Shown one piece after another: positions 20,085 through 52,668 of a DNA stretch of 64,000 bases (position 1 is its first letter; each line of letters starts with the position of its first letter). The notes under the pieces were generated by a model. That model ran no database searches. It saw nothing but the letters and a program-made list of their open reading frames with translations, and was not told the DNA's origin. Source of the stretch: a bacterium (GTDB lineage: Bacteria > Patescibacteriota > Dojkabacteria > JAKAPS01 > JAJZLI01); contig DAIDGT010000001.1 of assembly GCA_027459825.1 (NCBI GenBank), forward strand, positions 37,884-101,883. The letters are read 5' to 3'. The translations under genes and the position numbers were made by a program.

Positions 20085-20095
20085 AAAATATTATA

Positions 20096-30568: not shown

Positions 30569-30621
30569 AAAAATATTATAACATCCTAATTTTCATAAAT
30601 AAATTCAACATAAGAAACACC

Positions 30622-31890
30622 TTGTTTTTGAAAGATATTAACTATAATATGTATATTATGGAGCAGTATAATTACGAAATAACCAACCCAAACGGAAAGA
30701 TAGAAAAAGGTACAATATCCGCATCAACAAGAGAGGAAGCATACAAAATACTTCATGACCAAGGAAATACTGTTTTAAATATAGAAGTTACAAAAGGAAC
30801 AAAAACTGCGTCCAAAGGCACAAAAGTAAATACACTAGAATTAATAATATTTTTCGACCACATGCAAAAAATGATAGACGCAGGGTTATCTCTTTCAGAT
30901 ACCCTAACTGCATTAGTTGATGATGCACAGACCCCATCATTTAAGAATGTAATAATGGAGTTAAAACATGAAGTTGAAACAGGGAACAAACTATCTATAG
31001 GACTTCAAAAGTATCCTAAAACATTTTCACATGTAGTTACAAAAATGATAGAAGTTGGAGAGACAAGCGGAACATTATCAGAAAGTGCAAAAATGGTAAA
31101 AGATGACCTACAAAAAAGTTATGATTTAAAGAAAAAAGTTAGAGGAGCGATGCTTTACCCATTAATCATTGGATCAGTCATGCTTATTGTAGGCATTGGC
31201 CTTGTTATATTTGTATTTCCTCAACTAGGAACTATATTTGCAACATCAGGACTCAAACTCCCCCTACCAACTCGTATAATGCTTGGAATATCAAAATTAC
31301 TTACCACAAAAGCATACATAGGTGTACCATCACTTATAGCAATTATTATAATAGTCAAGTTATTAATAGCAAAACCATATTTCAAGCTTTTATGGAACAG
31401 AATGTCAATTAGATTACCCATACTTGGGCCAATTATAAGAAATATAAGTATTGCAACATTTTCAAGAACTTTTGGACATCTAATACAAAGCGGAATACAA
31501 ATTAATCAAGCAGTAGAAATTACAAAAGATTCAATGACAAATGAAGAATACAAAATGGTAATTGAAGAATTATCAAAAGAAATTCAAAAGGGAGCACCTA
31601 TATCATCAACACTAGAAAAGTATCCGAAGCTTTTCCCTCCCATCTCTGTACGTATGATAGCCGTAGGAGACAAGACAGGAAACACTGCAGAAATGCTAAA
31701 TTCAGTTGCGGTTTTTTACCAGACACAAGTAGACGATACTTTAGATAACCTTTCTACCATAATTGAACCAATAATGCTTTTCATAATGGGTGGAGGAGTA
31801 TTGCTGATTGCTCTATCCGTAATAATGCCAATTTATCAAATGACTGGATCTATAAATGCAAACACTGGATCGACACAAACTGGGGGATAA
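30622..31890 (+). CDS. pilC: type IV pilus inner-membrane platform protein PilC (GspF family)
   Basis: Two repeated T2SSF domains separated by TM helices. Confidence 0.9.
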   Translation: MFLKDINYNMYIMEQYNYEITNPNGKIEKGTISASTREEAYKILHDQGNTVLNIEVTKGTKTASKGTKVNTLELIIFFDHMQKMIDAGLSLSDTLTALVDDAQTPSFKNVIMELKHEVETGNKLSIGLQKYPKTFSHVVTKMIEVGETSGTLSESAKMVKDDLQKSYDLKKKVRGAMLYPLIIGSVMLIVGIGLVIFVFPQLGTIFATSGLKLPLPTRIMLGISKLLTTKAYIGVPSLIAIIIIVKLLIAKPYFKLLWNRMSIRLPILGPIIRNISIATFSRTFGHLIQSGIQINQAVEITKDSMTNEEYKMVIEELSKEIQKGAPISSTLEKYPKLFPPISVRMIAVGDKTGNTAEMLNSVAVFYQTQVDDTLDNLSTIIEPIMLFIMGGGVLLIALSVIMPIYQMTGSINANTGSTQTGG

Positions 31891-31894
31891 AAAT

Positions 31895-32341
31895 ATGAAA
31901 GAAGGATTTACTCTTATAGAAATAATACTTGCAATAACTATAGTTGCAATATTAATGCTAGGAGCATTTTTTTCCTATGTGACATTATATTCTCATTCAA
32001 ATGTAGCCAGCGGAATACAAATAGTTGAATATGCGGTAAAACAAGCACAAGATGATGCAATTGATGAATATAAAGGATACTCTGAATATGGAGTATACTT
32101 TGATAACAATACTGTGACAATATTTCCCGGAACAACATACACTCAAGGATCTTCAACAAATGTAGTATATGCATTACCTTTTGCAATAGAAATTACAAAT
32201 ATAAATCCCACAGACCATAATCCAATAATATTTGACGGGGTTAATGGTCAATTAGGAAATGATGGATTATCAGTAACAATAGGAAATTCAAACTTTGTAA
32301 ATACTATAAGTATAAACCAAAATGGAGCAATCTCTCAATAA
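31895..32341 (+). CDS. type IV prepilin (class III signal peptide MKEG|FTLIEI)
   Basis: GGGGGA Shine-Dalgarno-like element 7 nt upstream of the ATG at 31895. Canonical G-1, F+1, E+5 and a hydrophobic helix. The six-frame ORF starts earlier, at 31856. Confidence 0.75.
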   Translation: MKEGFTLIEIILAITIVAILMLGAFFSYVTLYSHSNVASGIQIVEYAVKQAQDDAIDEYKGYSEYGVYFDNNTVTIFPGTTYTQGSSTNVVYALPFAIEITNINPTDHNPIIFDGVNGQLGNDGLSVTIGNSNFVNTISINQNGAISQ

Positions 32342-32819
32342 CAATAAAGGACAAGTCCTTATAGACTTGATACTAGCAGTCATGGTACTAGGTATTATAA
32401 GCGTAATAGCATTAAACTTATTATCTTCCCTATCAAAGTCAATAGAGATAGCAAAACAAAAGCTTGAGGCCAAATACTTACTACAACAAGAAATGGAGAG
32501 CTTATATGCTATAGAATACCAATCTTGGTCATACTTACAAAATGGAGAATACTATTTATCATATAATTCAGTAAATAATCCCCCATCACAAATCCAAGGA
32601 TGGTATTTAACCTTGGGGTCTCAAACATATAATGAATATACAGAATATATAACAATCTCCCCTGCCTATAGACAAGATGCAAATACACTAACAACAGATT
32701 CTTCCTACCCCAATGATACAAATACAAAAGAGGTAACAGCAACAGTATCATTTAAATCATTTGGAAAAACATATACATACAATGACAGTGAATACTTTAC
32801 TAATTGGCAACAATTTTAA
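32322..32819 (+). CDS. pilin-like protein (degenerate prepilin N-terminus KG|QVLIDLILAV)
   Basis: Hydrophobic N-terminal helix with D at +5, inside a tandem pilin gene array. Confidence 0.4.
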   Translation: MEQSLNNNKGQVLIDLILAVMVLGIISVIALNLLSSLSKSIEIAKQKLEAKYLLQQEMESLYAIEYQSWSYLQNGEYYLSYNSVNNPPSQIQGWYLTLGSQTYNEYTEYITISPAYRQDANTLTTDSSYPNDTNTKEVTATVSFKSFGKTYTYNDSEYFTNWQQF

Positions 32820-33313
32820 TGAGAAATATTGAAGGATATACATTAATAGAAATTATAATTTACATAGCAATACTTTCTGTTGTTCTTGTTATTATAACAA
32901 TAATTATTATAATGATACTCCAAACACAAAATAAAATTATCACAATAGCAAATGCAAATGAAACAACAAGAATAGCCCTTAAAGAGATAACTCAAAATAT
33001 TGAAGATGGATATCAGGTAGAATCTCCAAACCCAGGGTCAACACAATCAGATAAATTAACGGTAGAAACTGACTCCACTGGAGATACCATAAGTTTCTAC
33101 ACTCAAAATGGAATTATTTACTCAAAATACAATGACAATACCCCAATACAAGTATCTTCTTCAAATATTTTTACGTATAATCTGTCCTTTCAGGAAGAAG
33201 CAAACACGGGGATGTCTCCTACTATATTTATAACACTTACAGAGAAAAATGTAGGTTCTACGGGACAACAAACATCAAAAACATATGAAACTACTGCAAC
33301 ACAAAGGAGATAA
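32819..33313 (+). CDS. type IV prepilin (MRNIEG|YTLIEI)
   Basis: ATG at 32819 overlaps the upstream stop (TAATG). G-1, E+5 and a hydrophobic helix. Confidence 0.7.
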   Translation: MRNIEGYTLIEIIIYIAILSVVLVIITIIIIMILQTQNKIITIANANETTRIALKEITQNIEDGYQVESPNPGSTQSDKLTVETDSTGDTISFYTQNGIIYSKYNDNTPIQVSSSNIFTYNLSFQEEANTGMSPTIFITLTEKNVGSTGQQTSKTYETTATQRR

Positions 33314-34703
33314 CAACAAAGGTCAAACAGCTATAATTGCAGCTGTAATAATTATGGCAATAATGCTTACTGCCATAACAACAATAGGTTATGTAGTATT
33401 AGGAGAATATAAACTATCTCAAAATGACGTTCTTGCATCTCAAACAAGATATTTTGCAGAATCTGGAATAGAAAATGCTCTCTTACAAATAGGTCAAAAT
33501 TCTTCCTACACTGGAGGATCATTTGTATCTCCAATTAATTCTCAAATAAACGGAACAGACAGTGTAACAGTCTCATATAATACTACAGACAATCCAGAAC
33601 AGGCTACAATTACCTCAGATGCAACAGTATATCAACAAGGAACATCAAATGTATTGTACACAAAGACAATACAAGTTGTTGCATCTTTGGGAACAATTCC
33701 ACAAATAGATAATTATGCTATTTTTGCAAACAACTATATATATGGAACACAATTTACAATAAACGGAGATGTGCAATCAAACAATTTACTTTATCTCCAA
33801 AACGGAACAATAAATGCACAAAATATCAATGCAGTAGGTCAAGGAGGAGGAGCATTTAATAATATTGATGGTATGACAATAAATAATAATGGAGGAGTGG
33901 TAAATCTTAATGGAAATTATATATTATCTTTCATCAATGATACTAATATAACAGGAGAATTAGGATGTGGAACAGCATTTTGGGGAGGATCATCTTGCAT
34001 AGTCACAAACAGCACAATAGGAAGCCAATCACAAGTTAGCGCACCACCACCAATTACACTACCAACTTTTGATACATCAACATGGGAAACATATGCACAA
34101 AACCATGGCACATTCTTTAGTAGTACACCCTCATTTTATGCATACCTTGAAAATTATTCATCCATATCAGATGGAATTGATACACTATCACCCCCAGCAG
34201 GGGTATATTACATAGATGCAAATATAAATGAACAGACACTTCCTTCACAGGACAGTCAAGGGAACTATATAACATATAATTTTACGGGATCCACAATAAT
34301 AACTAAGGTCGCTTTCGGAATAACTGCAGGATATATACAAACCTCTCCATTCTTAGATAGTAGTACAGGAAAATACCTACCCGCAATAGTTACAGGAAAA
34401 CAAGGAATAGACATGGATCAACCAGGAGGAAACACAAATACACAAATCAACATTACAGGAATAATCTACTCTTTAGGACAGATATCAATTGGAGGGGTAG
34501 ATAATTATGTACAAAATTTTACAGGCACAGTAACCATAAATGGAGCCTTATGGTCAGGAAATGCAGTAACAATTAATGAAGCTGACGATGCACAATCAGC
34601 CCAACAAACAATATCTCTTGATTCAAATATAGTTAACAATACTGAAGGCTTTAACACAACACAAACGTCAACCCAAATAATATCCTGGAATGAAATTAAC
34701 TAA
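33285..34703 (+). CDS. large minor-pilin-like protein (N-terminal pilin-like helix, about 470 aa)
   Basis: N-terminal KG|QTAIIAAVIIMAI hydrophobic helix with no E+5, followed by a large Asn/Thr-rich extracellular region. Position suggests a tip or minor pilin. Confidence 0.4.
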   Translation: MKLLQHKGDNNKGQTAIIAAVIIMAIMLTAITTIGYVVLGEYKLSQNDVLASQTRYFAESGIENALLQIGQNSSYTGGSFVSPINSQINGTDSVTVSYNTTDNPEQATITSDATVYQQGTSNVLYTKTIQVVASLGTIPQIDNYAIFANNYIYGTQFTINGDVQSNNLLYLQNGTINAQNINAVGQGGGAFNNIDGMTINNNGGVVNLNGNYILSFINDTNITGELGCGTAFWGGSSCIVTNSTIGSQSQVSAPPPITLPTFDTSTWETYAQNHGTFFSSTPSFYAYLENYSSISDGIDTLSPPAGVYYIDANINEQTLPSQDSQGNYITYNFTGSTIITKVAFGITAGYIQTSPFLDSSTGKYLPAIVTGKQGIDMDQPGGNTNTQINITGIIYSLGQISIGGVDNYVQNFTGTVTINGALWSGNAVTINEADDAQSAQQTISLDSNIVNNTEGFNTTQTSTQIISWNEIN

Positions 34704-34734
34704 CAACTTTACTTGAAATTATTTTAAGTATAAT

Positions 34735-37700
34735 ATGTATTACATGTTACGCAAGAGTAGGATCAGTTTTGATATTTTAAAAAAATTTTTCATTTCAAAA
34801 GTCAAAATATCGAGAAATAAGCTTAATAAATTTATAGTAATAGCTATACTTATCGGTGTATTAATAGGCATATATACTATTGCAAGTGGTATATTTACAA
34901 AAATATTCGCAACCTCACAGGGATCAATCACATACAATAGTGCATCACAATTTAGTAATGGAACTCTTACATCTACCCAGATTAATGGATCTTCTGTTGA
35001 ATTAGGACCAGGAAATGGAGGTTATGACAATACAAGTTACTTCTCCCAAATCACTTTAGATAACACAACTCCATATGCAACAATGTCTGATTATATAATC
35101 TCACTAAGTGTAAATACTCAAAGTCTAATATCTAACGGATACATGCAATCTACCTGTAACGATATAAGATTCCTTGATTCTGATAATAGTACACCTCTTA
35201 ACTACAACATAATATCAGGATGTAACAGTACAAACACAATAATATATGTAGAAATTCCTGAGTCAATAGCATCAAGTTCGTCAAAAACTATATATATGTA
35301 CTATGGAAATTCATCTCTCGCATCTGGAGCAGATATATCTCTACCGCCAGGGGATCCAACATTAGAAGCAGACTCTTTACATGAAATAGATCAACCCCAA
35401 GTACTACCTTATGCCTTTTATGACCCATCTACGAGTATATATACATATTTTGTAGTAGCAAATGGGACACCAACATATACAGGAGGAACAAGCGTATCTA
35501 TAACAGCAGTACATCCAGGATCTGCAGCATATGATTATTACTATGTAACATCTTCTTCAGAGCTAACAACCCTTAATGGAGTCAGTAGTTTTGTATATAG
35601 AGAAGCCACAGTATTTCAAGCAAACACATGGTGGTCTTCTCAAACAGTATTATCAATTCCAACAGGATACAGTCAAGTTATGGCTATGGGAGTAACTGAA
35701 GATTTGGGAATTTCTTTATGGGAGACAATAGTCGATAGTAACACTTATGGATATTCTGCAAATGTTTCTATGCATGAAACACTTACGGATATAAGTCCAA
35801 CAACTACTCACTCAGTTAAAGTTACATATTCATCAGGTTGCTGCGGAATTGAATTTGCATTTGCAGCAGCATATTATGAACCAACAATAACTATAGGAGC
35901 ACAACAAAATGCCTTTGCCACGACAGGAACATGGATATCACCTGCAATAAATACAATATGGAATGGTGGTTGGGGCGATGGGTCTACTACCACAAGCACT
36001 GCTTTTACTGCTACTGTTGCCAACACATCTTCTTCTCAAACTGTAGACGTGAAGATTAGATCAGCTTCTTCTTCCTCTGCCCTCTCCTCTGCTACATACT
36101 ATGATCTAGGTACCATATCTTCTGGAACTTCATTCTCTGTTGACCAATCTACATTCACGTCTCTTGGTGTTCCCGCCGATCAATATATTCAAATAGAATT
36201 GACTCTTAGTCAATCTGACTATGCTACTCCTTCTTTGAGTAGCTTCACAATATACTACGCTCAGGACAATACTCCTCCTGAGACAAACGCATCTAACATT
36301 GCTATGCAAACTCAAGCTTCTGGGGGACTAAACATTCCTGCTTCGGGATGGGACAACTCTTCTACTCCATACTTCTCATGGAATGCAGGATATGATTCTC
36401 AATCTGGTATCAAGGGATACTGCCTATACATAGGAACAAGTTCTTCTGGAAACCCTGCAACTTCTGAAGGATTACTAGGAACTTCCCCTGTTACAATACA
36501 AAATGGAGTTTGTCAGTTTGTAGTATCTACAAATTATGTTGATTTATCAAATCTATCTTACCAAGGATCTACATGGTTAACTTCATCTACTTCACCTTAC
36601 TACCTTAATGTATCTGCTATTGATAATATGAACAATGTTGATACATCTCCTGTTTCTTTTGAATTCTACTTTGACAATACTCCTCCTTTAAATGTCGCAT
36701 ACATATCATGTCCTAATGAAAACTTCTCCAATGTGTCTGACATGTCTTTTGCTTGGCCATCATCTGGAACAGACTCTTCATCTGATGCTATCTCTGGTGT
36801 ACTAGGGTGGCAATATCAAATTAACTCTACATCTGGTACATGGAAGGGTACTAATACTGATTCAACTCTTGGGATAACATACATTCCATACACATCATCA
36901 TCATACAAACTAACAGACGCTCAGGATGGATCATCAATATCTCCAGGACAGAATATTGTGTACTTCAGAACTGTTAATAACTCAGGAGTTGCATCCATAT
37001 CTTCTACATACAGAACATGTAACCTTGATTATCAGGGAGCTGCCCCTGTCTTTGCTTCAGGATCTAGTGTAACAGTATTACCTTCTACATCTACAACTAA
37101 CAGTTTTGCTATCTCATGGCCTACTGCTACTGCAACATCTGGACAAAGTGTAGCTCACTACTACTACATGATTAATACTCCTCCACCTTCTCTGTTATCT
37201 ACCTTGCAAGATAACCCTGGAACATATATTGACAACGGAGATAGCACTTCTATCCCTACAACAGCACTCGCTAACGTTGGAAAGGGTGTTAATACAATAT
37301 ATGTGGTTGCTATTGATAACAGTAATCCTCCAAATTACTCTCCTTCAAACGACATTACAGGATCATTTACTCTAAACTCAACAAACCCTGATCCTGTTGG
37401 GAATTTGATTGCTACAGACTCATCTATTAAAGCACAACAAAAGTGGAATGTTACTCTAACATGGACAGCTCCTGCTTATCAAGGTGCAGGAAATCTACAA
37501 TACCTGATATACAGATCTTCAAACAATGTGAACTTTTCTAATGTTGGTTCAACTACAGGATTATCATACGTTGATAATACTCCACTGTCTGCTCTGTACT
37601 ACTACTATGTTGTTGCAGAGGATGGTGCTAGAGCTATGAGTTCTAACTCCCTTACCGTATCAATTACCCCTACAGGAAGGTACACCACTCCCGCAAATTT

Positions 37701-38925
37701 GGAGACTGGACCTACCGTCACTGCAATATCAGATAACTCTGCCACAATATCGTGGTCTACTGACAGAAACTCTGATTCAAAGATCGAATATGGAACATCT
37801 TCTGGAACATATTACACTACAGAACCTTATGTACCTGCGCAGGTAACAGCTCATGTGATAGTGCTAACTAACCTGTCACCTTCAACAACCTACTATTACA
37901 AGGCATTATGGACAGATACTGATGGTAATACAGGATCATCAACAGAGAGTACATTCACTACAAATCCTCCGCCTGAGGTTAGTAATGTATCGGTTAACAA
38001 TGTAGGATTACATAGCGCATACATTTCATTCGCAATTTCAAATGCTGTACAGGCTCAGATTCAATATGGAACTACTAACTCTTTCGGCGGAAATGTTATA
38101 GTTGATACTTCACCAAATGAAAGTCCATATTCAGTACCTCTCACAAACCTTGCTTCAGGTACTAGGTACTACTACAGGGTAGTTATGTCAGATCCTAGTG
38201 GAGAAAGTTTTAATAGTGATACATATGATAATCTGATAACTCTACCACAACCAACAATTTCCAATATAGAAATTGATGCTATAGCAAACTCACCAGAACC
38301 AGGAGTCCTAATACAATGGAATACAAATACAGCAATGTCATCTGTAATATCGTATTGGCAAGGAAACAATACTGGCAATCCAACAGTAATTGCAAATACA
38401 AAATTAACCACAGGCAAACACCAAGTAGCAATAACACCACTTAATGCAAAAACAGTCTATAGCTTAATAATAAAAGGAGATGATGCTTATGGAAACCAGG
38501 CAGTATCGGATACACAAACCTTTACATCTGCTACAGATACAGTTCCTCCAACCATAACCAATATAACTGTACAAAGTCAAATTATGTCAGGGGCATCCGG
38601 AAACAAATCACAAATTATCGTGTCATGGACTACTGATAAACCTGCTACTTCTCAAGTTGAATTTAATCAGGGAGCTGGAGGAACATATTCACAGAAAAGT
38701 TCTGAAGATAGTCACTATGTACTAAATCACATCGTAGTCATATCAAACCTACCTACTTCTACTGTATATCACCTTAAAGCTATATCTAATGACGAAAGTG
38801 GAAATACTGGATACTCCTCTGATAATATTACTATTACTCCTCAGGCTACCGAAAGTGCTCTAAACCTGGTACTTGGTAATCTTGAGCAAGTTTTTGGATT
38901 TTTAGGGAATTTAAATGTGCCATAA
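34735..38925 (+). CDS. giant surface protein A (signal anchor, DUF2341-like domain, unique beta-rich module, Fn3-like repeats, conserved C-terminal tag)
   Basis: 1396 aa. N-terminal TM, then DIRFLDSDNSTPLNY...IYMYYGN (DUF2341-like), multiple WSTDRNSDSKIEYG...TTYYYKA repeats (Fn3/purple-acid-phosphatase-N-like), and the C-terminus ITITPQATESALNLVLGNLEQVFGFLGNLNV. Confidence 0.7.
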   Translation: MYYMLRKSRISFDILKKFFISKVKISRNKLNKFIVIAILIGVLIGIYTIASGIFTKIFATSQGSITYNSASQFSNGTLTSTQINGSSVELGPGNGGYDNTSYFSQITLDNTTPYATMSDYIISLSVNTQSLISNGYMQSTCNDIRFLDSDNSTPLNYNIISGCNSTNTIIYVEIPESIASSSSKTIYMYYGNSSLASGADISLPPGDPTLEADSLHEIDQPQVLPYAFYDPSTSIYTYFVVANGTPTYTGGTSVSITAVHPGSAAYDYYYVTSSSELTTLNGVSSFVYREATVFQANTWWSSQTVLSIPTGYSQVMAMGVTEDLGISLWETIVDSNTYGYSANVSMHETLTDISPTTTHSVKVTYSSGCCGIEFAFAAAYYEPTITIGAQQNAFATTGTWISPAINTIWNGGWGDGSTTTSTAFTATVANTSSSQTVDVKIRSASSSSALSSATYYDLGTISSGTSFSVDQSTFTSLGVPADQYIQIELTLSQSDYATPSLSSFTIYYAQDNTPPETNASNIAMQTQASGGLNIPASGWDNSSTPYFSWNAGYDSQSGIKGYCLYIGTSSSGNPATSEGLLGTSPVTIQNGVCQFVVSTNYVDLSNLSYQGSTWLTSSTSPYYLNVSAIDNMNNVDTSPVSFEFYFDNTPPLNVAYISCPNENFSNVSDMSFAWPSSGTDSSSDAISGVLGWQYQINSTSGTWKGTNTDSTLGITYIPYTSSSYKLTDAQDGSSISPGQNIVYFRTVNNSGVASISSTYRTCNLDYQGAAPVFASGSSVTVLPSTSTTNSFAISWPTATATSGQSVAHYYYMINTPPPSLLSTLQDNPGTYIDNGDSTSIPTTALANVGKGVNTIYVVAIDNSNPPNYSPSNDITGSFTLNSTNPDPVGNLIATDSSIKAQQKWNVTLTWTAPAYQGAGNLQYLIYRSSNNVNFSNVGSTTGLSYVDNTPLSALYYYYVVAEDGARAMSSNSLTVSITPTGRYTTPANLETGPTVTAISDNSATISWSTDRNSDSKIEYGTSSGTYYTTEPYVPAQVTAHVIVLTNLSPSTTYYYKALWTDTDGNTGSSTESTFTTNPPPEVSNVSVNNVGLHSAYISFAISNAVQAQIQYGTTNSFGGNVIVDTSPNESPYSVPLTNLASGTRYYYRVVMSDPSGESFNSDTYDNLITLPQPTISNIEIDAIANSPEPGVLIQWNTNTAMSSVISYWQGNNTGNPTVIANTKLTTGKHQVAITPLNAKTVYSLIIKGDDAYGNQAVSDTQTFTSATDTVPPTITNITVQSQIMSGASGNKSQIIVSWTTDKPATSQVEFNQGAGGTYSQKSSEDSHYVLNHIVVISNLPTSTVYHLKAISNDESGNTGYSSDNITITPQATESALNLVLGNLEQVFGFLGNLNVP

Positions 38926-38934
38926 TTAGAGGAA

Positions 38935-41900
38935 ATGCATAAATCTTATTTCTATCAAAAATTAAATCGTATTAGATTTAATATAATTGCAATATTGATA
39001 TTCGTGATAGGAATAATAATAGGTTCATATTTAACAATATCAAAAATTATTCCAACGATATTTGCTACGTCACAAACATCAATAAGCTACAGTACTGATA
39101 CTCAGTTTAATACAGGAACTATGTCTTCAACACAAGTATCAGGAAGTGGTAGCTCTGCAGTAGTAGAACTTAATGGGGGGTCTACAACTCCAGCCTGGTA
39201 TAATATAAATTGGAATTATAGACAAGAAATTACAATTAATTACACTCAAGTAACTTCTAGCCAAACAAATTTTCCAGTTCTAATAAGTATAAACTCAGAT
39301 ACAAGCCTTGCGACATATGCCCAATCAAACGGTAATGATATATTATTTACTTCAGATGACGGAATAACTAAGTTAAATCATGAAATCGAACAATACAACA
39401 CATCCACTGGGCAACTAATTGCATGGGTAAATGTTCCTTCATTGTCCTCGTCAACAAATACTATTTTATATATGTATTATGGTAACTCAAATGCTTCAAA
39501 CCAACAAAATACAGCAGGGGTGTGGGACAGTAATTACTCTGGAATATGGCATTTACCAAATGGAACTAACCTTAGCGCAAATGATTCTACAAGTAATGCC
39601 AATAATGGAACAATTTATGGAGTAACACCGACAACAGGAAAAATTGGAGGTGCAGGATATTTTAATGGATCAAGTTACATAGAAGTCCCTAATTCCTCAA
39701 GCCTGCAAGTAGGAAAACCAGGATTTACTTTTGAAGCTTGGGTGAATCCAAATAATATATCCAATTGTGGTAGTTTTAATTGCATAATCTTTAATGAAGA
39801 AAATAGCTATGAATGGGCAATATCAAATAATGGACTCTTAGGTATTGCTATTGCAAATACTACTCCAGGGTGGAATTGGGTAAGTACAAGCCAAATTATA
39901 CCTACAAATCAATGGACAAACTTGGTAATAACATATGATGGGTCGTATATAAAAACATATATTAATGGGACTCTACAAAATACAATAACTGGAAGTGGAA
40001 ATTTAACAAGTGTAACAACTGCGTTAAGAATTGGGGCCAGAGGAGCACCAAGTAGTGCATTTGCTTTCTGGTATGGTTCACTTGATGAAATCCGTATATC
40101 TAGTATAGCTCGCTCTTCTTCTTGGATATCAACAGCATATAATAACGAGAATTCCCCTTCAAGTTTTTTTACCCTAGGGTCCCAAGAGACTTCAATTGCC
40201 ACATCAGGATATTGGGAATCTCCTTCTAACTCAAATACCATAGACCTTATTTGGAATGGTGGTTGGGGAGACGGCAGTAATGATACCTCAACTGCTTTTT
40301 CTGCAACAGTAGCATCAGTAAATACAAACCAAACAATAACATTTGAAATGAAGACAGCAACAAGCGAAGCAAATTTAAGCACATCTCCATATATTACTTT
40401 AGGAACAGTAAATTCGGGAACAACATTTACAACAACTGCAGCACAAATGAATTCCTTAGGATTATCTGCAGGAGACTACCGGTACCTACAAGTTGAGGCT
40501 ATATTCTCACAATCAACAGGAACATCTCCCCAACTTGATAATTTTACAATTTACTATACAAAAGATAATACTCCCCCAGAAACTAACGCATCTTCTATAC
40601 TAATGTATACTTCGAATGGAGGACGTAGCATTTCTCAATATGGATGGGATAATAGCTCTACACCATATTTTAGCTGGACAGCAGGAAGTGATTCTCAATC
40701 AGGAATGAAAGGATATTGTCTTTACTTAGGAACAAGTAACAGCACCATACCTTCTACTTCTTCTTCAGGAAACTTAAATCCAAATAATTCCCCTATTTCT
40801 GCCAGTGGCACCGGATGTGAAGGAGGAAATGGATTTATAACATCATCTACATCAATAGACCTCTCTACTTCTGGGTACCTACAAACCCAACTCACAACAT
40901 CAACTTCTCCATACTATCTAGGTGTAGCAGCAGTAGATAATGAAGGAAATATAGATTCAAATTTTGTATACTTTACATTCTATTTTGACAATACAATCCC
41001 AAATAACGTATCCTATATATCATGCCCTGGAGGAAACTTTTCCAATGTCACTAATATGAGTTTTTCATGGCCGACAAGTGGAAGTAATGCATCATCCTCA
41101 ATAGCAGCTCCTATACTTGGGTGGCAATACCAAATTAACTCTACTTCAGGGACATGGAATGGACCTAATTACAATTCAAGCCTTAGTGTGAACTATATAC
41201 CATCAACGAATTCATCATATACACTAACATCATCGGACAGCTCATCTATAATAGTAGGTGATAATATAATCTACTTTAGAACCATAGATGAAGCAGGAAA
41301 TATATCCTCTTACAGAACATGCTCAATTGCATATGGAGGACAGGCACCTATATTTCCAATAGGTGGACAAGTACTGGTAACACCCAACACCTCAAACACC
41401 AATACATTCTCTCTATCATGGCCATCAGCAACAGCAACAACGGGACAAACTGTCGCTGATTACTATTATATGGTTAATAATACACCACCATCGTCCCTTG
41501 CAACCCTTCAGGAAAATGGAGGAAAGTATATAAATAATGGAACTTCAACTGAGGTATCTGCAACTGTTCTTTCAAATGCAGTTAAAGGAACAAATACAGT
41601 ATATGTTGTGGCAATAGATAATTCTGCTACCCCAAACTACTCCCCATCTAATTATATATCAGGAACATTTACTCTAAATTCCAATAACCCAGATCCTGTA
41701 TCAAATTTAGTAGCAACAGATTCCTCCATTAAGGTAAAATCTCAATGGAATGTAACACTTACATGGTCTGCTCCTTCATATCAGGGAGCAGGAAATCTCA
41801 CTTACCTGATTTATAGATCAACCAATGATATCAATTTTACAGAAGTAGGAACAACTATAGGGCTCTCATATGTAGACAACACTCCAGAATCAACTCTGTA

Positions 41901-43206
41901 TTATTACTACATAATAACCCAAGATGGAGCAAGTGAGTTAAGTGATCAATCAACAACAGTATCAATTACTCCAACAGGAAGATATACAAGTCCAGCAAGT
42001 ATAGAAACTACCCCCACAGTAACCAACATAACGGATAATTCAGCAACCATATCATGGTCTACTGATAGAAACTCTGATTCTAAAATTGAGTATGGGAAAT
42101 CTTCAGGAAACTACTATACAACAGAGCCATACGTTCCTACTCAAGTTACAGAGCATGTAGTCACACTAACTAATCTATCTCCATCCACAACATATTACTA
42201 TAAAGCTATATGGACAGATTCAGATGGTAATACAGGAACATCAACAGAAAGTACATTCACCACTAATCCACCTCCTGAGGTTAGTGATGTTTCTGTGAGT
42301 AATATAACATTGAATAGTGCATATATTTCATTTAGTATTTCTAATGCTGTTGTTGCACAAATCCAGTATGGACCAACAACATCGTTTGGAGGAAGTATTC
42401 CATTAACTACATCTCCAAATAAAAGTCCATATACCGAACCAATAACAGGATTATCTTCAGGAACCCAGTATTATTATAGAATAGCAATGACAGACCCTAC
42501 AGGAAATATATACTATTCTGATACATATAATAATCTAATAACCCCGCCTACCCCAGAAATTTCAAAAATAGAAATATCTGCTGTATCAAATTCTCCAGAA
42601 ATAGACGTATTTGTACAATGGAGTACTAATACAGCAACTTCATCTGTCATCTCCTATGGAGGAAAAACTCAAGTAGATGAAAATTTCATATCAGGAGAGC
42701 ATCAAGCAATTATTACAAATCTTTCATCTAATACAAAATATAGTTTAACAATAAAAGTAATAGATAAATATGGAAACCAAGTTACATCTTCTCCTCAAAT
42801 ATTCACAACAGGAATAAATAAAGTTCCCCCTAAAATAGTCAGTTTAAATATACAAACACAATTGATGAAATCATCTTCAGGAAATACACAAATTATAATA
42901 TCATGGACAACTGACAAACCATCTACATCTCAAGTTGAGTACGGGGAGGGAACAGGAACAACATATTCTCAAAAAAGTACAGAGGACAATCATTATGTAA
43001 TTAATCATGTAGTGGTAATCTCTAACCTTCCAACAGCAAGAATATATCATATAAAAGCTATATCAGTTGATAGTAATGGAAATGTAGGTTATTCTTCTGA
43101 TAATATTACTATTACTCCACAGGCTACCGAGAGTGCTCTAAACCTTGTGCTCGGTAATCTTGAGCAAGTTTTTGGATTTTTAGGAAATTTAAATGTATCA
43201 TATTAG
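38935..43206 (+). CDS. giant surface protein B (signal anchor, DUF2341-like, LamG_3 lectin-like domain, Fn3-like repeats, same C-terminal tag)
   Basis: 1423 aa, paralog of protein A. It contains a concanavalin-like LamG_3 region ending in the typical GSLDEIRIS motif that protein A lacks. The C-terminal 30 aa are identical to A. Confidence 0.7.
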   Translation: MHKSYFYQKLNRIRFNIIAILIFVIGIIIGSYLTISKIIPTIFATSQTSISYSTDTQFNTGTMSSTQVSGSGSSAVVELNGGSTTPAWYNINWNYRQEITINYTQVTSSQTNFPVLISINSDTSLATYAQSNGNDILFTSDDGITKLNHEIEQYNTSTGQLIAWVNVPSLSSSTNTILYMYYGNSNASNQQNTAGVWDSNYSGIWHLPNGTNLSANDSTSNANNGTIYGVTPTTGKIGGAGYFNGSSYIEVPNSSSLQVGKPGFTFEAWVNPNNISNCGSFNCIIFNEENSYEWAISNNGLLGIAIANTTPGWNWVSTSQIIPTNQWTNLVITYDGSYIKTYINGTLQNTITGSGNLTSVTTALRIGARGAPSSAFAFWYGSLDEIRISSIARSSSWISTAYNNENSPSSFFTLGSQETSIATSGYWESPSNSNTIDLIWNGGWGDGSNDTSTAFSATVASVNTNQTITFEMKTATSEANLSTSPYITLGTVNSGTTFTTTAAQMNSLGLSAGDYRYLQVEAIFSQSTGTSPQLDNFTIYYTKDNTPPETNASSILMYTSNGGRSISQYGWDNSSTPYFSWTAGSDSQSGMKGYCLYLGTSNSTIPSTSSSGNLNPNNSPISASGTGCEGGNGFITSSTSIDLSTSGYLQTQLTTSTSPYYLGVAAVDNEGNIDSNFVYFTFYFDNTIPNNVSYISCPGGNFSNVTNMSFSWPTSGSNASSSIAAPILGWQYQINSTSGTWNGPNYNSSLSVNYIPSTNSSYTLTSSDSSSIIVGDNIIYFRTIDEAGNISSYRTCSIAYGGQAPIFPIGGQVLVTPNTSNTNTFSLSWPSATATTGQTVADYYYMVNNTPPSSLATLQENGGKYINNGTSTEVSATVLSNAVKGTNTVYVVAIDNSATPNYSPSNYISGTFTLNSNNPDPVSNLVATDSSIKVKSQWNVTLTWSAPSYQGAGNLTYLIYRSTNDINFTEVGTTIGLSYVDNTPESTLYYYYIITQDGASELSDQSTTVSITPTGRYTSPASIETTPTVTNITDNSATISWSTDRNSDSKIEYGKSSGNYYTTEPYVPTQVTEHVVTLTNLSPSTTYYYKAIWTDSDGNTGTSTESTFTTNPPPEVSDVSVSNITLNSAYISFSISNAVVAQIQYGPTTSFGGSIPLTTSPNKSPYTEPITGLSSGTQYYYRIAMTDPTGNIYYSDTYNNLITPPTPEISKIEISAVSNSPEIDVFVQWSTNTATSSVISYGGKTQVDENFISGEHQAIITNLSSNTKYSLTIKVIDKYGNQVTSSPQIFTTGINKVPPKIVSLNIQTQLMKSSSGNTQIIISWTTDKPSTSQVEYGEGTGTTYSQKSTEDNHYVINHVVVISNLPTARIYHIKAISVDSNGNVGYSSDNITITPQATESALNLVLGNLEQVFGFLGNLNVSY

Positions 43207-43215
43207 TACGCAAAT

Positions 43216-45780
43216 ATGGGAGATCAAGTAATTATAAATTTAGAACATGTTTCAAAATCTTTTGATAGTGCAGAAAGACAAATACCTGTATTGAAAGATA
43301 TGTCACTATCAATATACAAAGGGGATTTTGCCATCATACTAGGACCTTCAGGGTCAGGAAAATCTACTCTACTTCATACTCTGTTAGGACTAGAGGCACC
43401 AACAACAGGAAAAGTGGAACTATTAAACCAAAACATATATGAAAACTGGGATGAAGATAAAAGATCAGAGTTTAGGAAAAGATATATTGGAATGGTATAC
43501 CAACAATCAAATTGGATACAATCATTATCTGTAATTGACAATATAACCTTCCCGCTATTACTACTTGGAGTGGATAAGGATACAGCAAGACAAAGAGGGA
43601 TGGAACTTCTACAAAACATATCAATGGAAAAATGGGCAGATTTCTCTCCATCAGAACTTTCATCAGGAGAACAACAAAAAATTGCACTTATGAGAGCAAT
43701 AATTACTGATCCCGATATAATAGTTGCAGATGAGCCAACAGGAAATCTTGACTATCAATCAGGAGAAGAATTAATGGAGCTTCTCCAAATGTTCAATAGT
43801 AAAGGAAAAACAGTAATTATGGTTACTCACGACTTAGCATATATAAAATATGCTAAGAGAACAATAAAGATATTTGATGGTGTAATTATGGGTATGTTCC
43901 AAAGGAATATAGCGCAAGAAGAAGAGGCTATGAGAGAGTCTAAAAGAAAAGGGAGTGAAGAATCACAACAACTGGAACAGGGAAGTAGACATATAAAGGT
44001 ACAAGACTTTAAAGAGGAACATATTCCTGAAAAGTACGCGTCACTAGAAGAGCCTACACCAAACTTATTAAAAAGGATATTTCAATTTATACTAACAATT
44101 GTTGTGTGTATATTTGTAGTAGTGATAAATATACTTATATATATTCTAAACTTGCCATTGAGATTATTTCGCTCACATAAACTGATAAAGTCCATAAAAG
44201 TAGACATGAAGTACATAACAGATGGAATACTACAAGGAGCATCATTCTTAATTATGCTATTCTTCTCAATAATTAATATTACTATAAGAGCTATACTATC
44301 TATAAAAATACTAAAGTATATAGGAGCAAACCAAATACAATACATCAGAAAGCAAATATCTAACGGAATAAAATTTATATTTGACAGAAAAGTATCGGGA
44401 AAGATAGGGAGAGAGACAGTAATAAACCTTTCTTACAGTAATTTACATGCAAAAAAATCAAGAACATTTGTAACAATCGGAGGCATAATGATAGGTGTAG
44501 GAATGATTGTTTTCTTAGTATCACTAGGATATGGACTGCAATCTCTGGTTATTTCAAGAGTTGCAAAACTGGGAGCAATTAAAGAAGCAAGTGTTTCAAT
44601 ACAAACAGGAAGTAAATTACAAATTAATGACAATACCTTGTATAAATTAAAATCCATCCCAAATGTTACTGAAGTCTACCCTATTATATCTGTCGTTGGA
44701 AAAGTTATTTACAATAATTCAAATTCTGATATGGCAGTATATGGAGTAACAACAGGATACTTACAATCTCTGAGTATTAATCCTATCAAGGGAAATTTCT
44801 TTAATAATAATAATCTAACAAATAAGCTTCCAATAGAAACCCAGCAACAATCAAACCAACAAGGAAGCAGTACTACATCAAATAGCACTTCTGGAAACCA
44901 AACAGGAAACGGATCTCTTCCTTTTATAAATGTACCTTCTCTTTCTACTCCAGTACAAACACCAAAAACAACACTGGTGTCTTTACTATCATCATCAAAT
45001 GATACAGTAGTAAATCAGGCAATGTTAACTGAACTTGGGATACCAGAGCAGCAAGCAATAGGAAAAACATTCCAATCATCCTTCATAGTAACATCTAACC
45101 TTTTAAACAATACAAATCAGTCAATACAAACAAAGCCTATTACATTTAAAATAGTAGGAATACTACCAGGGACATCCACTCCTGATATATATGTACCGTT
45201 TATAGATTTAAGGTCAATTGGTATAACAAATTATTCTCAACTTGAAGTTGTTGTAAATCAGGCAAATCAACTTGCATTAGTAAGGAAACAAATAGAATCA
45301 TACGGATATGCGACAACATCGGTTGCAGATACTGTGTCACAAATTAATGGAGTATTTAATACATTAAGAATAATATTGGCACTATTTGGATTTATTGCTT
45401 TAATTGTTGCAGCCTTAGGTATGCTTAATACATTAACAATATCACTTCTTGAGAGAACAAGAGAAGTTGGTTTAATGAAAGCTCTTGGAATGCAATCAAA
45501 TGAAGTAATGGAATTATTCTTAACAGAATCAATGGTTATGTCTGTATTGGGAGGAATTCTAGGTATAGTATTTGGTTATGTTATAGGTAAAATATTAAGT
45601 ATATTGCTATCAATAATATCTATATCAAAAGGAGGGGGATATATAAATATATCTACAATTCCATGGAGCATGATTATTGTAGTCATAATTCTATCAGTAA
45701 TAGTGGGAGGAATAACAGGAATATACCCTGCAGCAAGAACACGAAGAATATCTGCATTGAATGCATTAAGATATGAATAA
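43216..45780 (+). CDS. MacB-type fused ABC transporter (N-terminal ATPase plus C-terminal FtsX-like permease)
   Basis: Walker A GPSGSGKSTLL, ABC signature LSSGEQQ, Walker B IIVADEPTGNLD, then TM helices, a large extracytoplasmic region and an FtsX-like 4-TM C-terminus. Confidence 0.8.
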   Translation: MGDQVIINLEHVSKSFDSAERQIPVLKDMSLSIYKGDFAIILGPSGSGKSTLLHTLLGLEAPTTGKVELLNQNIYENWDEDKRSEFRKRYIGMVYQQSNWIQSLSVIDNITFPLLLLGVDKDTARQRGMELLQNISMEKWADFSPSELSSGEQQKIALMRAIITDPDIIVADEPTGNLDYQSGEELMELLQMFNSKGKTVIMVTHDLAYIKYAKRTIKIFDGVIMGMFQRNIAQEEEAMRESKRKGSEESQQLEQGSRHIKVQDFKEEHIPEKYASLEEPTPNLLKRIFQFILTIVVCIFVVVINILIYILNLPLRLFRSHKLIKSIKVDMKYITDGILQGASFLIMLFFSIINITIRAILSIKILKYIGANQIQYIRKQISNGIKFIFDRKVSGKIGRETVINLSYSNLHAKKSRTFVTIGGIMIGVGMIVFLVSLGYGLQSLVISRVAKLGAIKEASVSIQTGSKLQINDNTLYKLKSIPNVTEVYPIISVVGKVIYNNSNSDMAVYGVTTGYLQSLSINPIKGNFFNNNNLTNKLPIETQQQSNQQGSSTTSNSTSGNQTGNGSLPFINVPSLSTPVQTPKTTLVSLLSSSNDTVVNQAMLTELGIPEQQAIGKTFQSSFIVTSNLLNNTNQSIQTKPITFKIVGILPGTSTPDIYVPFIDLRSIGITNYSQLEVVVNQANQLALVRKQIESYGYATTSVADTVSQINGVFNTLRIILALFGFIALIVAALGMLNTLTISLLERTREVGLMKALGMQSNEVMELFLTESMVMSVLGGILGIVFGYVIGKILSILLSIISISKGGGYINISTIPWSMIIVVIILSVIVGGITGIYPAARTRRISALNALRYE

Positions 45781-45924
45781 ACATCAGGTTAATGACAATC
45801 TCTGATTTACCCATAAACATCCCTACACAGTCATCGGATGACCAATTTATGGAAGAATATTCATATAACTTCACCTATGTAATTTAAATTTATAATTTTT
45901 CAAAAATAATGTAATATTAATAAC

Positions 45925-47544
45925 ATGGATAATCTGCTTCGAAATATTATCTCAAGAGAAAAAGTATTTGGGATAGACATTACAAACTCATCCATTCGTA
46001 TAATACAATTTGAAACAAAAAAGGACTATTTTGTACTAAAAAGTATAGCAGAAGAAGAAATACCTATTACCTCATTTGTAGCAGGAGTAATAAGACAAAA
46101 AGACATTGTTGCGCAAAAATTAATAGATTCAATAGAAAAAGCATATCCTAAAAGAATTACAACGAAATTTGCAGTAGTGCTATTACCAGATGATCAAATA
46201 TATACCCAGATAATAAAACTACCAAAGGTAGAGAAAAATAAAATAGAAAAAGCAATAGCCTTTCAGCTCTCTTCTTTCATACCGATGAAAGAAGATGAAG
46301 TTTACTGGGATTTTGCAATACTATCAGAAGATACAAATAACTATGAAATCATTATAAATGCAGTAGGAAAAGAAAGCGCAGATTCATTTATAGAAACATT
46401 AAATATTGCAGGTATCACCCCGCTTGTATTTGAAAGTAGATCACAAGCAGCATTAAGAGCAATCAAGGGGCATAATAAAACAGAAGAAGAGTATATGTTA
46501 ATAGACATTGGGAAGAGTATTACTAATATTGCCATCACAAAGAAGGATGCTATACAATTTTCATCCTCAGTTTTCTTTGGTGTAAATCAAATTATAAAAG
46601 TAATAGGAGAATACAATAAAATTAATGATGACAAAATAAAAGAGATACTAGAGAAAAATGGAGTGGCATCTGAAGATACTGAATTACAAAAACATATTGA
46701 TACTCTATTTATACAACCTATGCAGGAAATGCAAAAAGCAATTAACTATTATGGAGAAGAAAAGATATCAAAAGTATATCTGTATGGCGATGGAGCTCAA
46801 TTAAAAGGAGTGCTTGATAAATTCCAATCACAAACTAGTGTAAAAACAGAAATTGCGGGTATTGATATAAAAATATATCCGATACTACAGTGGGAAAAAC
46901 ATGAAAAAATTTCTCCATATATTTCAATTATAGGAATTGAAATGATAAATAAGATAAAAAATCTTATTTATATAAATATTCTACCTAAAAAACAAAAAAG
47001 CATCGGAGTAAGTAAATATATAAAGAAACAAACATTAGGACTATTAAAATTTATTTTAATAGATCTTGTTATACTTTCTGTAGGGATGCTTTATCTAAGT
47101 TATCAAAATACACAATCTATGCAGAATATACAAAATGCAATACAAACCTATATACAGGCAAACAATAACCCTAGATACAAAGGACTGAATACAAAAATAA
47201 ATACACTGAATACAGAACTTTCAAATTTATCTAACGCATACAAGACACAATACATGTGGTCAAAAACAATAGAAGAGATTTCAAATCTAATACCTTCAGG
47301 AGTAACATTAAACCAATTTAAAGTACAAAATACTGCAAAAACACAAAGTAGCTCAACAGTATCAGTAAACCCTGTATGGCAGATTACACTTGGAGGAATA
47401 GCGCAAACAGGATCACTAGTAGTCAATCTTGCAAATACACTTGAAAAAGAAAAAGGGATATCAAATGTAGAAATGCCTATTTCTAATTTTCAATCTAGCC
47501 AGAATACAAACTTTACTATAACATTTAATATTACCCCACAATGA
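45925..47544 (+). CDS. PilM-PilN fusion protein (actin-like ATPase fold plus inner-membrane PilN segment)
   Basis: N-terminus VFGIDITNSSIRIIQFE is the PilM actin-like start. After about 340 aa there is an INILPKKQK motif (the PilN INLLP-type motif), followed by a TM helix and a periplasmic domain. Confidence 0.6.
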   Translation: MDNLLRNIISREKVFGIDITNSSIRIIQFETKKDYFVLKSIAEEEIPITSFVAGVIRQKDIVAQKLIDSIEKAYPKRITTKFAVVLLPDDQIYTQIIKLPKVEKNKIEKAIAFQLSSFIPMKEDEVYWDFAILSEDTNNYEIIINAVGKESADSFIETLNIAGITPLVFESRSQAALRAIKGHNKTEEEYMLIDIGKSITNIAITKKDAIQFSSSVFFGVNQIIKVIGEYNKINDDKIKEILEKNGVASEDTELQKHIDTLFIQPMQEMQKAINYYGEEKISKVYLYGDGAQLKGVLDKFQSQTSVKTEIAGIDIKIYPILQWEKHEKISPYISIIGIEMINKIKNLIYINILPKKQKSIGVSKYIKKQTLGLLKFILIDLVILSVGMLYLSYQNTQSMQNIQNAIQTYIQANNNPRYKGLNTKINTLNTELSNLSNAYKTQYMWSKTIEEISNLIPSGVTLNQFKVQNTAKTQSSSTVSVNPVWQITLGGIAQTGSLVVNLANTLEKEKGISNVEMPISNFQSSQNTNFTITFNITPQ

Positions 47545-48083
47545 AAAGAAAAAATATAAAAACATATATAATCTTTACTGTATTTATAATATCTATTATA
47601 TATTTGACCTATTTTTCTTACTCAAAATACACAAAATCCACAAAACAGAAAGTAGAATTACAAAATACTCTCACTATTTTACAAGCTAAACAAGTACAGG
47701 ATATACAGGTATTAAAAGAGTATAATACATACTTTCCAGGTATTAGTGATATACAAAATACAATAGTAACAAACAACTCCCTACTTAACTGGGTAAATCA
47801 AGAAAACTTAGTTGCATCAATTACAGGGAATGCAAACACAATAGAATTTCAAAATGCCACAGTTACTCAAAATAATATACAAATAAACGGGAATACATCA
47901 ACCGCTCCAATTCAAGACCTAATTGTTAATATTAACCTTCAAGGAAATTTTCAACAGTTAGTAAACTTTCTTGCAATGATGGAAAATTCATATTATTTCA
48001 CAAATGTAACATCAATTGCCTCCCAAACTGAAAATTCAGGAGCTCTTAATACATCAATAACATTAGAACTACACATATCATGA
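47541..48083 (+). CDS. PilO-like protein
   Basis: N-terminal TM helix, coiled coil, then a periplasmic domain. Translationally coupled (ATGA) to pilMN. Confidence 0.4.
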   Translation: MKRKNIKTYIIFTVFIISIIYLTYFSYSKYTKSTKQKVELQNTLTILQAKQVQDIQVLKEYNTYFPGISDIQNTIVTNNSLLNWVNQENLVASITGNANTIEFQNATVTQNNIQINGNTSTAPIQDLIVNINLQGNFQQLVNFLAMMENSYYFTNVTSIASQTENSGALNTSITLELHIS

Positions 48084-48334: not shown

Positions 48335-48348
48335 AAATAAGACAGAAA

Positions 48349-52654: not shown

Positions 52655-52668
52655 CCTAAAAGTGAAAA

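Follow-up and report, generated by a model that had tools for sequence, protein, structure and literature searches.

Tandem giant proteins of a Dojkabacteria genome as putative lectin-tipped surface fibrils linked to a MacB-type ABC transporter

The window analysed here, a stretch of 64,000 nucleotides (nt) with a G+C content of ~31% from a Dojkabacteria genome (assembly GCA_027459825.1, contig DAIDGT010000001.1, positions 37,884 to 101,883), contains two tandem genes for giant proteins, termed A and B, followed by the gene of a MacB-type ATP-binding cassette (ABC) transporter (Table 1). We propose, with moderate confidence, that A and B are Sec-exported, lectin-tipped surface fibrils of a Patescibacteria-wide family, each with a dedicated transporter of the MacB type. 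Much of bacterial diversity belongs to the Patescibacteria, whose cultivated members live attached to host cells; attention to host recognition in this group has centred on type IV pili. The initial annotation of the window had assigned A and B to a pilus locus, as pilus-associated adhesins or host-receptor-binding proteins with exchanged lectin-like modules.

The two genes are co-directional and back to back as had been described, with a spacer of 9 nt rather than 10 nt. BLASTP with composition correction off aligned residues 24-1395 of A with residues 9-1421 of B at 50.9% identity (1374 bits, E = 0), confirming their paralogy. In a windowed global alignment with 50-column windows, the first ~190 residues share about 20-50% identity and are followed by a segment (A ~189-394, B ~181-421) of 8-20% identity, i.e. 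4-10 of 50 columns. Beyond this segment runs the collinear homologous stalk of ~1000 aa that had been noticed in both proteins, in which the windows reach 38-86% identity (~64% overall), and the final 35 residues of A and B do not differ at all. The Pfam scan of A and B agrees with the domains read from the sequence alone. DUF2341 scores above its gathering cut-off of 23.4 bits in both proteins; Pur_ac_phosph_N (PF16656)/fn3 is found in two stretches of the stalk in each protein, with scores of 41.8 and 38.5 bits (cut-off, 30 bits); Laminin_G_3, ending in GSLDEIRIS, exceeds its gathering score in B alone. With an identity of 8-20% and a LamG hidden Markov model match only in B, the module after DUF2341 is non-homologous between the two proteins, as had also been claimed. 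No family of NCBIfam was matched by A or B. The N-terminal hydrophobic signal that had been recognised in both proteins is present as one helix each, predicted from hydropathy.

Relatives of A and B are widespread. At least 559 stretches of species-representative genomes encode one, nearly all of which are titled as Patescibacteria lineages or unclassified bacteria. Our sample comprises 81 related loci, 80 of them kept from a scan of one genome per species; the titles of these 80 include Microgenomates, Roizman-, Davies-, Pace-, Collier-, Shapiro-, Doudna-, Nomura-, Moran- and Dojkabacteria, WWE3 and many Saccharibacteria, and a few titles probably represent mislabelled bins. At the protein level, 877 database proteins among the 8000 candidates scored reached E <= 1e-5, only some of which have the whole architecture. 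Among the best 120 matches listed for the query B, about 40 are full-architecture relatives of 1370-2050 aa with 29-59% identity, and their only informative source name is 'DUF2341 domain-containing protein [Patescibacteria group bacterium]'. Full-length A is hidden from representative-based searches, its 90% cluster being represented by a 264-aa fragment (P0121) from a 1.1-kb contig; the apparent absence of A from the database of 5.8 billion proteins is an artefact of this clustering and not biology. The Southlakia genes SEML1_0890/0891 from a transposon-sequencing (Tn-seq) study (Cell 2023) were considered as members and rejected, SEML1_0890 being only 588 bp, and the Tn-seq supplements examined list no PF16656, PF10102 or PF13385 entries.

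Each family member can be divided into an N-terminal head and a C-terminal core. Heads were delimited by BLAST anchoring on the core (B residues 516-1423), as motif-based limits are unreliable in divergent members. The core of ~905 aa stops 0-6 residues from the C-terminus in every anchored relative, and the heads range in length from 470 to about 2300 aa. The AlphaFold2 model of the core, calculated from an alignment of 42 sequences, is all β except for a helix at core residues 886-897, with a predicted local distance difference test score (pLDDT) of 86.3 and a predicted TM-score (pTM) of 0.40; it suggests a flexible string of about 9-10 β-sandwich domains that ends in a short helix. Foldseek with this model returned only generic Ig/Fn3 arrays (titin, gp130 and other Fn3 arrays), and a PDB sequence search with the core profile returned only Fn3 domains of titin and Dscam. 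The terminal helix is amphipathic and carries a family-wide motif, ITPKAxxxALxLVxxNLxxxFGFL, in which one F is invariant. Over the last ~25 codons of A and B (38851-38925 and 43129-43206), the genes share 91% nucleotide identity, and identical residues share the codon in 75% of cases, compared with about 45% elsewhere in the core, which suggests local gene conversion or an extra constraint at the 3' ends. A terminator-like stem-loop pattern lies within the coding end of B, at 43148-43166.

At the opposite end, the family members share a basic stretch, a hydrophobic helix and a small-x-A motif (IFA/T, VFA/T, AQA/S or VRA/D, the slash marking the putative cut). Judged by the usual form of signal peptidase I sites, this arrangement suggests a cleaved Sec signal, and in A the predicted cut falls after residue 59 (KIFA/TSQ). 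A nearly invariant pair of cysteines in the family alignment (B595/B628) fits an extracytoplasmic location. The hallmarks of sortase-anchored (LPXTG) surface proteins are absent, as neither A nor B has an LPxTG-like motif and the sole predicted transmembrane (TM) segment of each is the N-terminal one. The earlier description of A and B as extracytoplasmic, adhesin-like proteins with a conserved stalk is supported.

The transporter encoded after B is a fused protein with the Pfam domains ABC_tran (residues 26-175), MacB_PCD (417-535) and FtsX (723-846). Its best PDB matches are MacB structures (5nik, 5gko and 5lil), with E values from 2.9e-65 for 5nik to 9.2e-60, and it has the type VII MacB architecture, in which an N-terminal ATPase is joined to FtsX-type TM helices and the periplasmic core domain is inserted between TM1 and TM2; because it scores only 260 bits with the NCBIfam MacB equivalog, far under the cut-off of 966, it is not an ortholog of Escherichia coli MacB. 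Two extra TM helices are predicted between the ATPase and the canonical TM1 (292-310 and 334-352, with TM1 at 419-437), and the extracytoplasmic domain contains, at about residues 540-600, an insert of low complexity enriched in Q, N, S and T.

The link between giants and transporters extends across the family. Neighbours in the 81 loci were labelled by tblastn with the window proteins, open reading frames (ORFs) were called greedily, and 88 giants had enough downstream sequence to be evaluated. The next downstream gene on the same strand is of the MacB type for 73/88 giants, with a median gap of 2 nt, the transporter being encoded as one fusion or as a separate ATPase (~255 aa) and permease; for a further 8/88 the next gene is another giant paralog, so that MacB or a paralog comes next in 81/88 cases, about 92%. 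Seven giants have another neighbour, three of them with MacB nearby (divergent just upstream in L014 and L039). Outside the giant-MacB cassette, the flanks are unrelated between lineages. A single MacB follows 2-4 tandem giants with common termini and core in the window and in the loci L034, L058 and L059. In L061 and L064, the two genomes with two cassettes, the nearest relatives of each ATPase are those that accompany giants of the same subtype in other genomes, and for three of the four cassettes the core and the ATPase have almost the same list of nearest neighbours. Taken together, these gene orders and similarities indicate that giant and MacB are co-inherited as a cassette, and that the conserved partner of the giants is the MacB-type transporter and not the pilus.

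It is improbable, in our judgement, that giants and transporters are co-located yet independent, the transporter exporting a small molecule, peptide or lipid and the giants being ordinary proteins that are secreted by Sec or associated with the wall. Export of small substrates is common among MacB-family pumps (PMC5985334), a few giants have no adjacent MacB, and the giant-MacB link is known from synteny. However, independence sits poorly with an adjacency kept at near-zero or overlapping gaps across very divergent classes, with the co-divergence of the pair after cassette duplication, and with the absence of a MacA/HlyD-type adaptor gene after MacB in the window and in the loci examined in detail.

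The local setting in the window invites a different assignment. The flanking genes are as the initial annotation had listed them, with pilin-like genes upstream, the transporter downstream and then PilM-PilN, although PilO is only a possible assignment for an ORF of 180 aa that matched no family in the Pfam and NCBIfam scans. Among the upstream pilin-like ORFs, two have the N_methyl motif, one is ComGE-like and one encodes 472 aa. In such a setting A and B might be pilus-associated adhesins, functional analogues of PilY1 that join the four minor pilins at the tip of the type IV pilus, and MacB an incidental neighbour. The position between the minor pilins and pilMN, on the same strand and with small gaps, speaks for this, as do a remote homolog of the A module (P0123) with a pilin-type N_methyl N-terminus, a published annotation in which DUF2341 is predicted to belong to type IV pili-like systems (PMC11809585) and the lectin-like tip proteins proposed for Saccharibacteria pili (PMC11623550).

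Comparison across genomes argues against the pilus assignment, since the cassettes of the relatives mostly lie away from pilus genes. PilB and PilC, which are easy to detect and were used as pilus markers, occur within 10 kb of a giant only in L004, L047 and L072 among the 81 loci, and pilin N-terminal motifs occur near a giant in about 4-6 of the 81; by a rough estimate, this is close to chance placement in ~1-Mb genomes with few pilus loci. In L004, which shares with the window the GGDEF, NDH2 and AAA_14 genes divergent from pilC, the pilC-pilins-pilMN string is contiguous and free of giants, and the giant-MacB pair lies ~5 kb away, after AAA_14 and on the opposite strand. In L001, the closest relative of the window, DNA similarity stops about 90 nt past the MacB stop codon, and the next ORF is not PilM and has no counterpart in the window. 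Because MacB is the conserved neighbour, the L004 pilus operon is intact without giants and the synteny with L001 is lost after MacB, the giant-MacB cassette is an independent unit, located inside a pilus operon only in the window genome as far as the data show. The pilus-associated part of the earlier reading is not supported, and a pattern of this kind, with giants mostly missing from the pilus loci of relatives, is one that the initial annotation had itself regarded as refuting it. In addition, A and B show neither an N_methyl match nor the class III prepilin signal (G-F/Y-T-L-I-E, cut after G), a motif present in the neighbouring ORFs; they also lack the C-terminal β-propeller of PilY1 by Pfam, and the C-terminal region of the modelled core consists of sandwich domains and the helix. 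The pilus setting of A and B is probably incidental, and we assign the PilY1-like alternative a low probability.

The heads differ greatly between family members. The 73 complete heads fall into 34 clusters at 45% identity, and a Pfam scan of 36 head sequences (the 34 cluster representatives plus A and B) found DUF2341 in 15 and Laminin_G_3 in 11. F5/8 type C, BclA_C/TNF, pentaxin, FGE-sulfatase (C-type-lectin fold) and a glycine-rich domain occur as single cases, and many other heads have no Pfam match whatever; in one database member, Fibrinogen_C sits at the position of the LamG module of B. The folds assigned in this way are ligand-binding ones, mostly glycan-binding. Tandem paralogs are always mutual closest relatives by core within a genome and have very different heads: core and head identities are 65% and 29% for A and B, 81-86% and 32-50% in L034, 80% and 36% in L058, 83% and 23% in L059, and 73% and 26% in L039.

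The L001 locus, a metagenome contig from ENA, is an example of head replacement. It has tandem giants followed by MacB, as in the window, and its MacB-proximal giant matches A at 91% identity over the part that begins at residue 385, compared with about 40% in the signal/DUF2341 part and 38% over the whole head. This giant carries a LamG module where A has its jelly-roll, with a sharp mosaic junction at A residue 385. The proposed exchange of modules on a conserved stalk is therefore borne out by L001 and A, except that the unit is larger than the ~250-aa lectin module: between these two proteins it is the whole head, from the signal peptide to about residue 385, and in the family at large the entire part before B residue 516 is variable. 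Either whole heads recombine, or the cores undergo gene conversion while the heads diverge; both ways, the head is the fast-evolving unit.

In A, the position of the LamG module of B is taken by a rare all-β jelly-roll. The possibility that this module is a frameshifted LamG was ruled out, as both alternative frames are riddled with stop codons and a tblastn search of the segment for LamG modules gave no match. A word-indexed search of 5.8 billion proteins returned only a near-identical fragment, and an exhaustive HMMER search of 1.84 billion representatives returned nine remote homologs (E 1e-20 to 2e-4, 28-40% identity) that have invariant F, Y, S, W, D, H, H, Y, G and G positions in common. 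The jelly-roll is a portable domain, also found in Cys-rich Stig1-repeat proteins. Of the remote homologs P0122 and P0123, one is a GH20-domain protein in which the jelly-roll precedes a DUF2341-like start (WQYRR); P0123, the homolog with the N_methyl N-terminus, has 633 aa and contains InlB B-repeat-like domains. The only PDB sequence relative of the LamG module of B is the LamG-like domain of the extracellular arabinanase 5hon (E 1.9e-5).

Another alternative is that the giants are S-layer-like structural envelope proteins or glycan-degrading enzymes instead of adhesins. One database member is named 'exoglucanase B precursor', LamG-like modules serve as carbohydrate-binding modules of glycosidases, and the GH20-domain protein mentioned above contains a homolog of the A module. 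Nevertheless, Pfam detected no catalytic domain in A, B or the 36 head sequences, and the extreme variability of the heads, the differing heads of tandem paralogs and the targeting of heads by retroelements are typical of ligand recognition and not of catalysis or of a lattice, which makes a structural or enzymatic role very improbable.

Diversity-generating retroelements (DGRs) are associated with the family in other genomes. In L017, L024 and L026, a reverse transcriptase (RT) gene lies upstream of the giant (RVT_1, E 2.4e-18), and a template repeat (TR) of 119-125 nt beside it matches a variable region (VR) in the head, at the end of an FGE-sulfatase/C-type-lectin-fold domain. The mismatches between TR and VR fall at template adenines in 13/18, 17/18 and 12/15 cases, respectively, and this adenine specificity is the DGR signature in all three loci. 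RT homologs are located within about 4 kb upstream of a giant in 18/81 loci. In the window, tblastn with the L017 RT detected no reverse transcriptase, and Pfam detected no C-type-lectin module. The VR is internal, at residues ~346-386 of a giant of ~1500 aa; DGR variable regions are typically C-terminal, and the targets reported from the candidate phyla radiation were without recognisable domains (PMC8144416). The targeting of the head by DGRs thus marks it independently as the ligand-recognition end. Additional genes surround the Pacebacteria-type L017 cassette: a Bro-N protein is encoded between RT and giant, and genes of type IV secretion and conjugation-like character (a VirD4-like coupling protein, Replic_Relax, a type IV secretion system pilin and a TraG/VirB4-like ATPase) flank it (582-4088 and 15712-20945). 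The L017 cassette may be located on or beside a mobile element; gene-size patterns similar to its flanks are seen in L012, L019 and L024.

On this basis we propose the following model for the giant-MacB cassette. The giant would be exported by Sec via its N-terminal hydrophobic signal, which is probably cut after the conserved x-F-A motif. The ~905-aa C-terminal part would fold as a rod of about 9-10 β-sandwich domains, which if extended would measure a few tens of nanometres. Its C-terminal amphipathic helix would be cell-proximal and probably dock either to the MacB dimer, at the extracytoplasmic domain, or to the membrane, and the N-terminal head (DUF2341 plus LamG in B, DUF2341 plus the rare jelly-roll in A) would be distal and bind a surface ligand, possibly a glycan, of the host or a partner cell. 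Mechanotransmission is the mode of action of MacB-type transporters and is directed at partners outside the cytoplasm or at substrates embedded in the membrane (PMC5985334, PMC7668044, PMC12646458). The ATP consumed here might accordingly be used in one of two ways: the transporter could anchor the fibril and drive it mechanically, as FtsEX does with EnvC/PcsB, or extract it from the membrane and release it, as LolCDE does with lipoproteins. The binding repertoire would be widened by lineage-specific tandem duplication and whole-head replacement, and in other lineages by a DGR that mutates a C-type-lectin-fold module in the head. A more speculative extension, to which we give roughly a minor chance, is a phylum-wide machine in which type VII ABC mechanotransmission deploys, tensions or releases the lectin-tipped fibril for host capture without type IV pili, and is respecified by head swapping and by DGRs with internal VRs.

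Several points weigh against this model. L038, L040, L041 and L051 have no MacB gene adjacent to the giant, and their neighbours have no detectable MacB similarity. The synteny seen in the other loci shows a partnership of giant and transporter but not its mechanism. The terminal helix is modelled at low confidence, with a pLDDT of about 50, and could lie on the membrane or bind another partner instead of MacB. The hydrophobic segment of ~20 residues might stay as an uncleaved anchor, which would place the head beside the membrane. Finally, the cassette stands within a co-directional pilus string, with intergenic gaps of 31, 9, 9 and 144 nt from the minor pilins through A, B and MacB to pilMN, and may be co-expressed with the pilus and have a lineage-specific link to it.

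Table 1. Coordinates of the features discussed; positions refer to the window unless a relative's locus is named.
Feature	Position	Strand	Basis
Giant protein A, 1396 aa, MacB-linked fibril family (putative)	34735-38925	+	ORF, translation, paralogy to B
A N-terminal signal region: basic stretch, helix 33-51, then ...KIFA/TSQ	34735-34911	+	Hydropathy, family motif
A DUF2341 (PF10102), residues 141-200	35155-35334	+	Pfam E 6.1e-12, 46.3 bits
A rare all-β jelly-roll module, residues ~203-384, in place of the LamG of B	35341-35886	+	
A conserved region, residues 385-1396: β domain with WNGGWGDG, then ~905-aa β-sandwich rod	35887-38922	+	Identity profile, L001 ortholog, family alignment
A C-terminal amphipathic helix ESALNLVLGNLEQVFGFLGNL	38851-38913	+	Same in B; family motif; hydrophobic moment
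Giant protein B, 1423 aa, tandem paralog	38935-43206	+	ORF, translation; same sequence as P0001 in the protein database
B N-terminal signal region: helix 17-35, ...TIFA/TSQ after residue 44	38935-39066	+	Hydropathy, family motif
B DUF2341 (PF10102), residues 132-197	39328-39525	+	Pfam E 9.1e-12, 45.7 bits
B Laminin_G_3 (PF13385)/concanavalin-like module, residues 244-399	39664-40131	+	Pfam E 2.7e-24
B conserved core, residues 516-1423: ~9-10 β-sandwich (Fn3/Ig-like) domains (modelled) and terminal helix	40480-43203	+	AlphaFold2, Foldseek
Fused MacB-type (type VII) ABC transporter, 854 aa, 9 nt after B	43216-45780	+	Pfam, PDB matches
Upstream context: PilC (T2SSF), four pilin-like ORFs (31856-32341, 32322-32819, 32804-33313, 33285-34703)	30622-34703	+	Pfam T2SSF, N_methyl
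Downstream context: PilM-PilN fusion (45925-47544), one-TM ORF of 180 aa (47541-48083, possible PilO)	45925-48083	+	Pfam PilM_2, PilN; hydropathy
DGR of L017	TR 5851-5969, RT 6194-7291, VR 9282-9400		
DGR of L024	TR 5733-5850, VR 9283-9400		
DGR of L026	TR 5436-5560, VR 9249-9373		

The surrounding genes of the window contain further features. The 472-aa ORF (33285-34703) has a pilin-like hydrophobic N-terminus (NNKGQTAIIAAVIIMAI...) and matched no Pfam or NCBIfam family; in L004, a counterpart of 469 aa adjoins the small pilins. The ORF may encode a large minor pilin or a tip protein of this pilus, and it is a better candidate for a pilus adhesin than A or B. PilM and PilN are encoded as a single ORF of 539 aa (PilM_2 16-311, TM 371-389, PilN 449-535) that shares 4 nt with the following ORF. 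A GGDEF diguanylate cyclase gene on the minus strand (29789-30568) is divergent from pilC (30622-31890), a pairing kept in L004 that hints at cyclic di-GMP control of the pilus locus. Farther downstream (50519-55074), an ADP-forming acetyl-CoA synthetase-like gene (CoA_binding, Succ_CoA_lig and ATP-grasp_5) precedes a phosphoketolase gene (XFP), which indicates fermentative energy metabolism. A promoter and terminator scan of 30000-49200 found sites no more frequently than in shuffled sequences and was uninformative on the operon.

Our literature search found no paper that describes the family or its link to a MacB-type transporter; DUF2341 domains have been noted in very large Patescibacteria proteins (PMC11809585), and the family members are labelled in databases only as 'DUF2341 domain-containing' or 'hypothetical'. 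If the coupling is real, type VII ABC transporters would gain partner proteins of a new kind in the giants, which would also be concrete, testable candidates for host recognition. Their heads are swap experiments made by nature, and the relatives with a DGR show where the ligand-binding surface lies. The case also counsels caution in annotation, as local context is insufficient for naming the giants pilus components.

Among known systems, A and B invite comparison with PilY1, which they resemble as large non-pilin proteins with a Sec-type signal, encoded after minor-pilin genes and divided into a variable N-terminal and a conserved C-terminal part. They differ from it in having an Fn3/Ig-like stalk instead of a propeller and a pilus linkage that is not kept in relatives. 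The modular pilins of Streptococcus sanguinis (PilB with a vWA module and PilC with a lectin module; PMC8179133) likewise combine a monoderm-type envelope with lectin-type adhesion modules near a pilus system. Their modules, however, are grafted on a pilin domain whose signal peptide is of class III, a motif that A and B lack.

Adhesins of the LapA/SiiE type depend on an HlyB-type ABC transporter, an adaptor and TolC, are not known to have a Sec signal, and carry RTX repeats and a C-terminal secretion signal. These substrates of type I secretion (PMC6272769) are similar to A and B in their rod of Ig-like repeats, ligand-binding region, conserved C-terminal element and adjacent ABC transporter, whereas A and B have a Sec-type N-terminal signal, a transporter of the MacB type, no RTX repeats by Pfam and no adaptor gene. 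Compared to DGR-diversified proteins of the C-type-lectin fold (PMC8144416, PMC5758913), the DGR-bearing relatives of A and B share the RT and, in the three loci examined, the adenine-biased TR/VR pair in an FGE-sulfatase/C-type-lectin module, but their VR is internal in the head of a giant, and the window itself has neither RT nor such a module. The head of B corresponds to one DUF2341 plus Laminin_G_3 unit of the MJ1470-like DUF2341-LamG repeat proteins found in bacteria and archaea, being 36-45% identical to their repeated units; in those proteins, however, the unit is repeated many times, the ~905-aa core and the C-terminal helix are missing, and only 23-30% of the query is covered.

The closest parallels for the transporter are FtsEX-EnvC/PcsB and YbbAP-TesA, in which a MacB-fold ABC transporter is likewise encoded with an extracytoplasmic protein, and in which the partner binds the extracytoplasmic domain of the transporter and is subject to ATP-driven mechanotransmission (PMC7668044, PMC12646458). 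The putative partner here is a probable lectin-headed fibril of β-sandwich domains, 1400-3200 aa long, and not a coiled-coil hydrolase regulator or a lipase; the window transporter also differs in its two additional predicted TM helices and its Q/N/S/T-rich insert. Altogether, A and B would work most like modular stalk-and-head adhesins, and their coupling to the transporter may resemble that of FtsEX-EnvC or YbbAP-TesA in kind.

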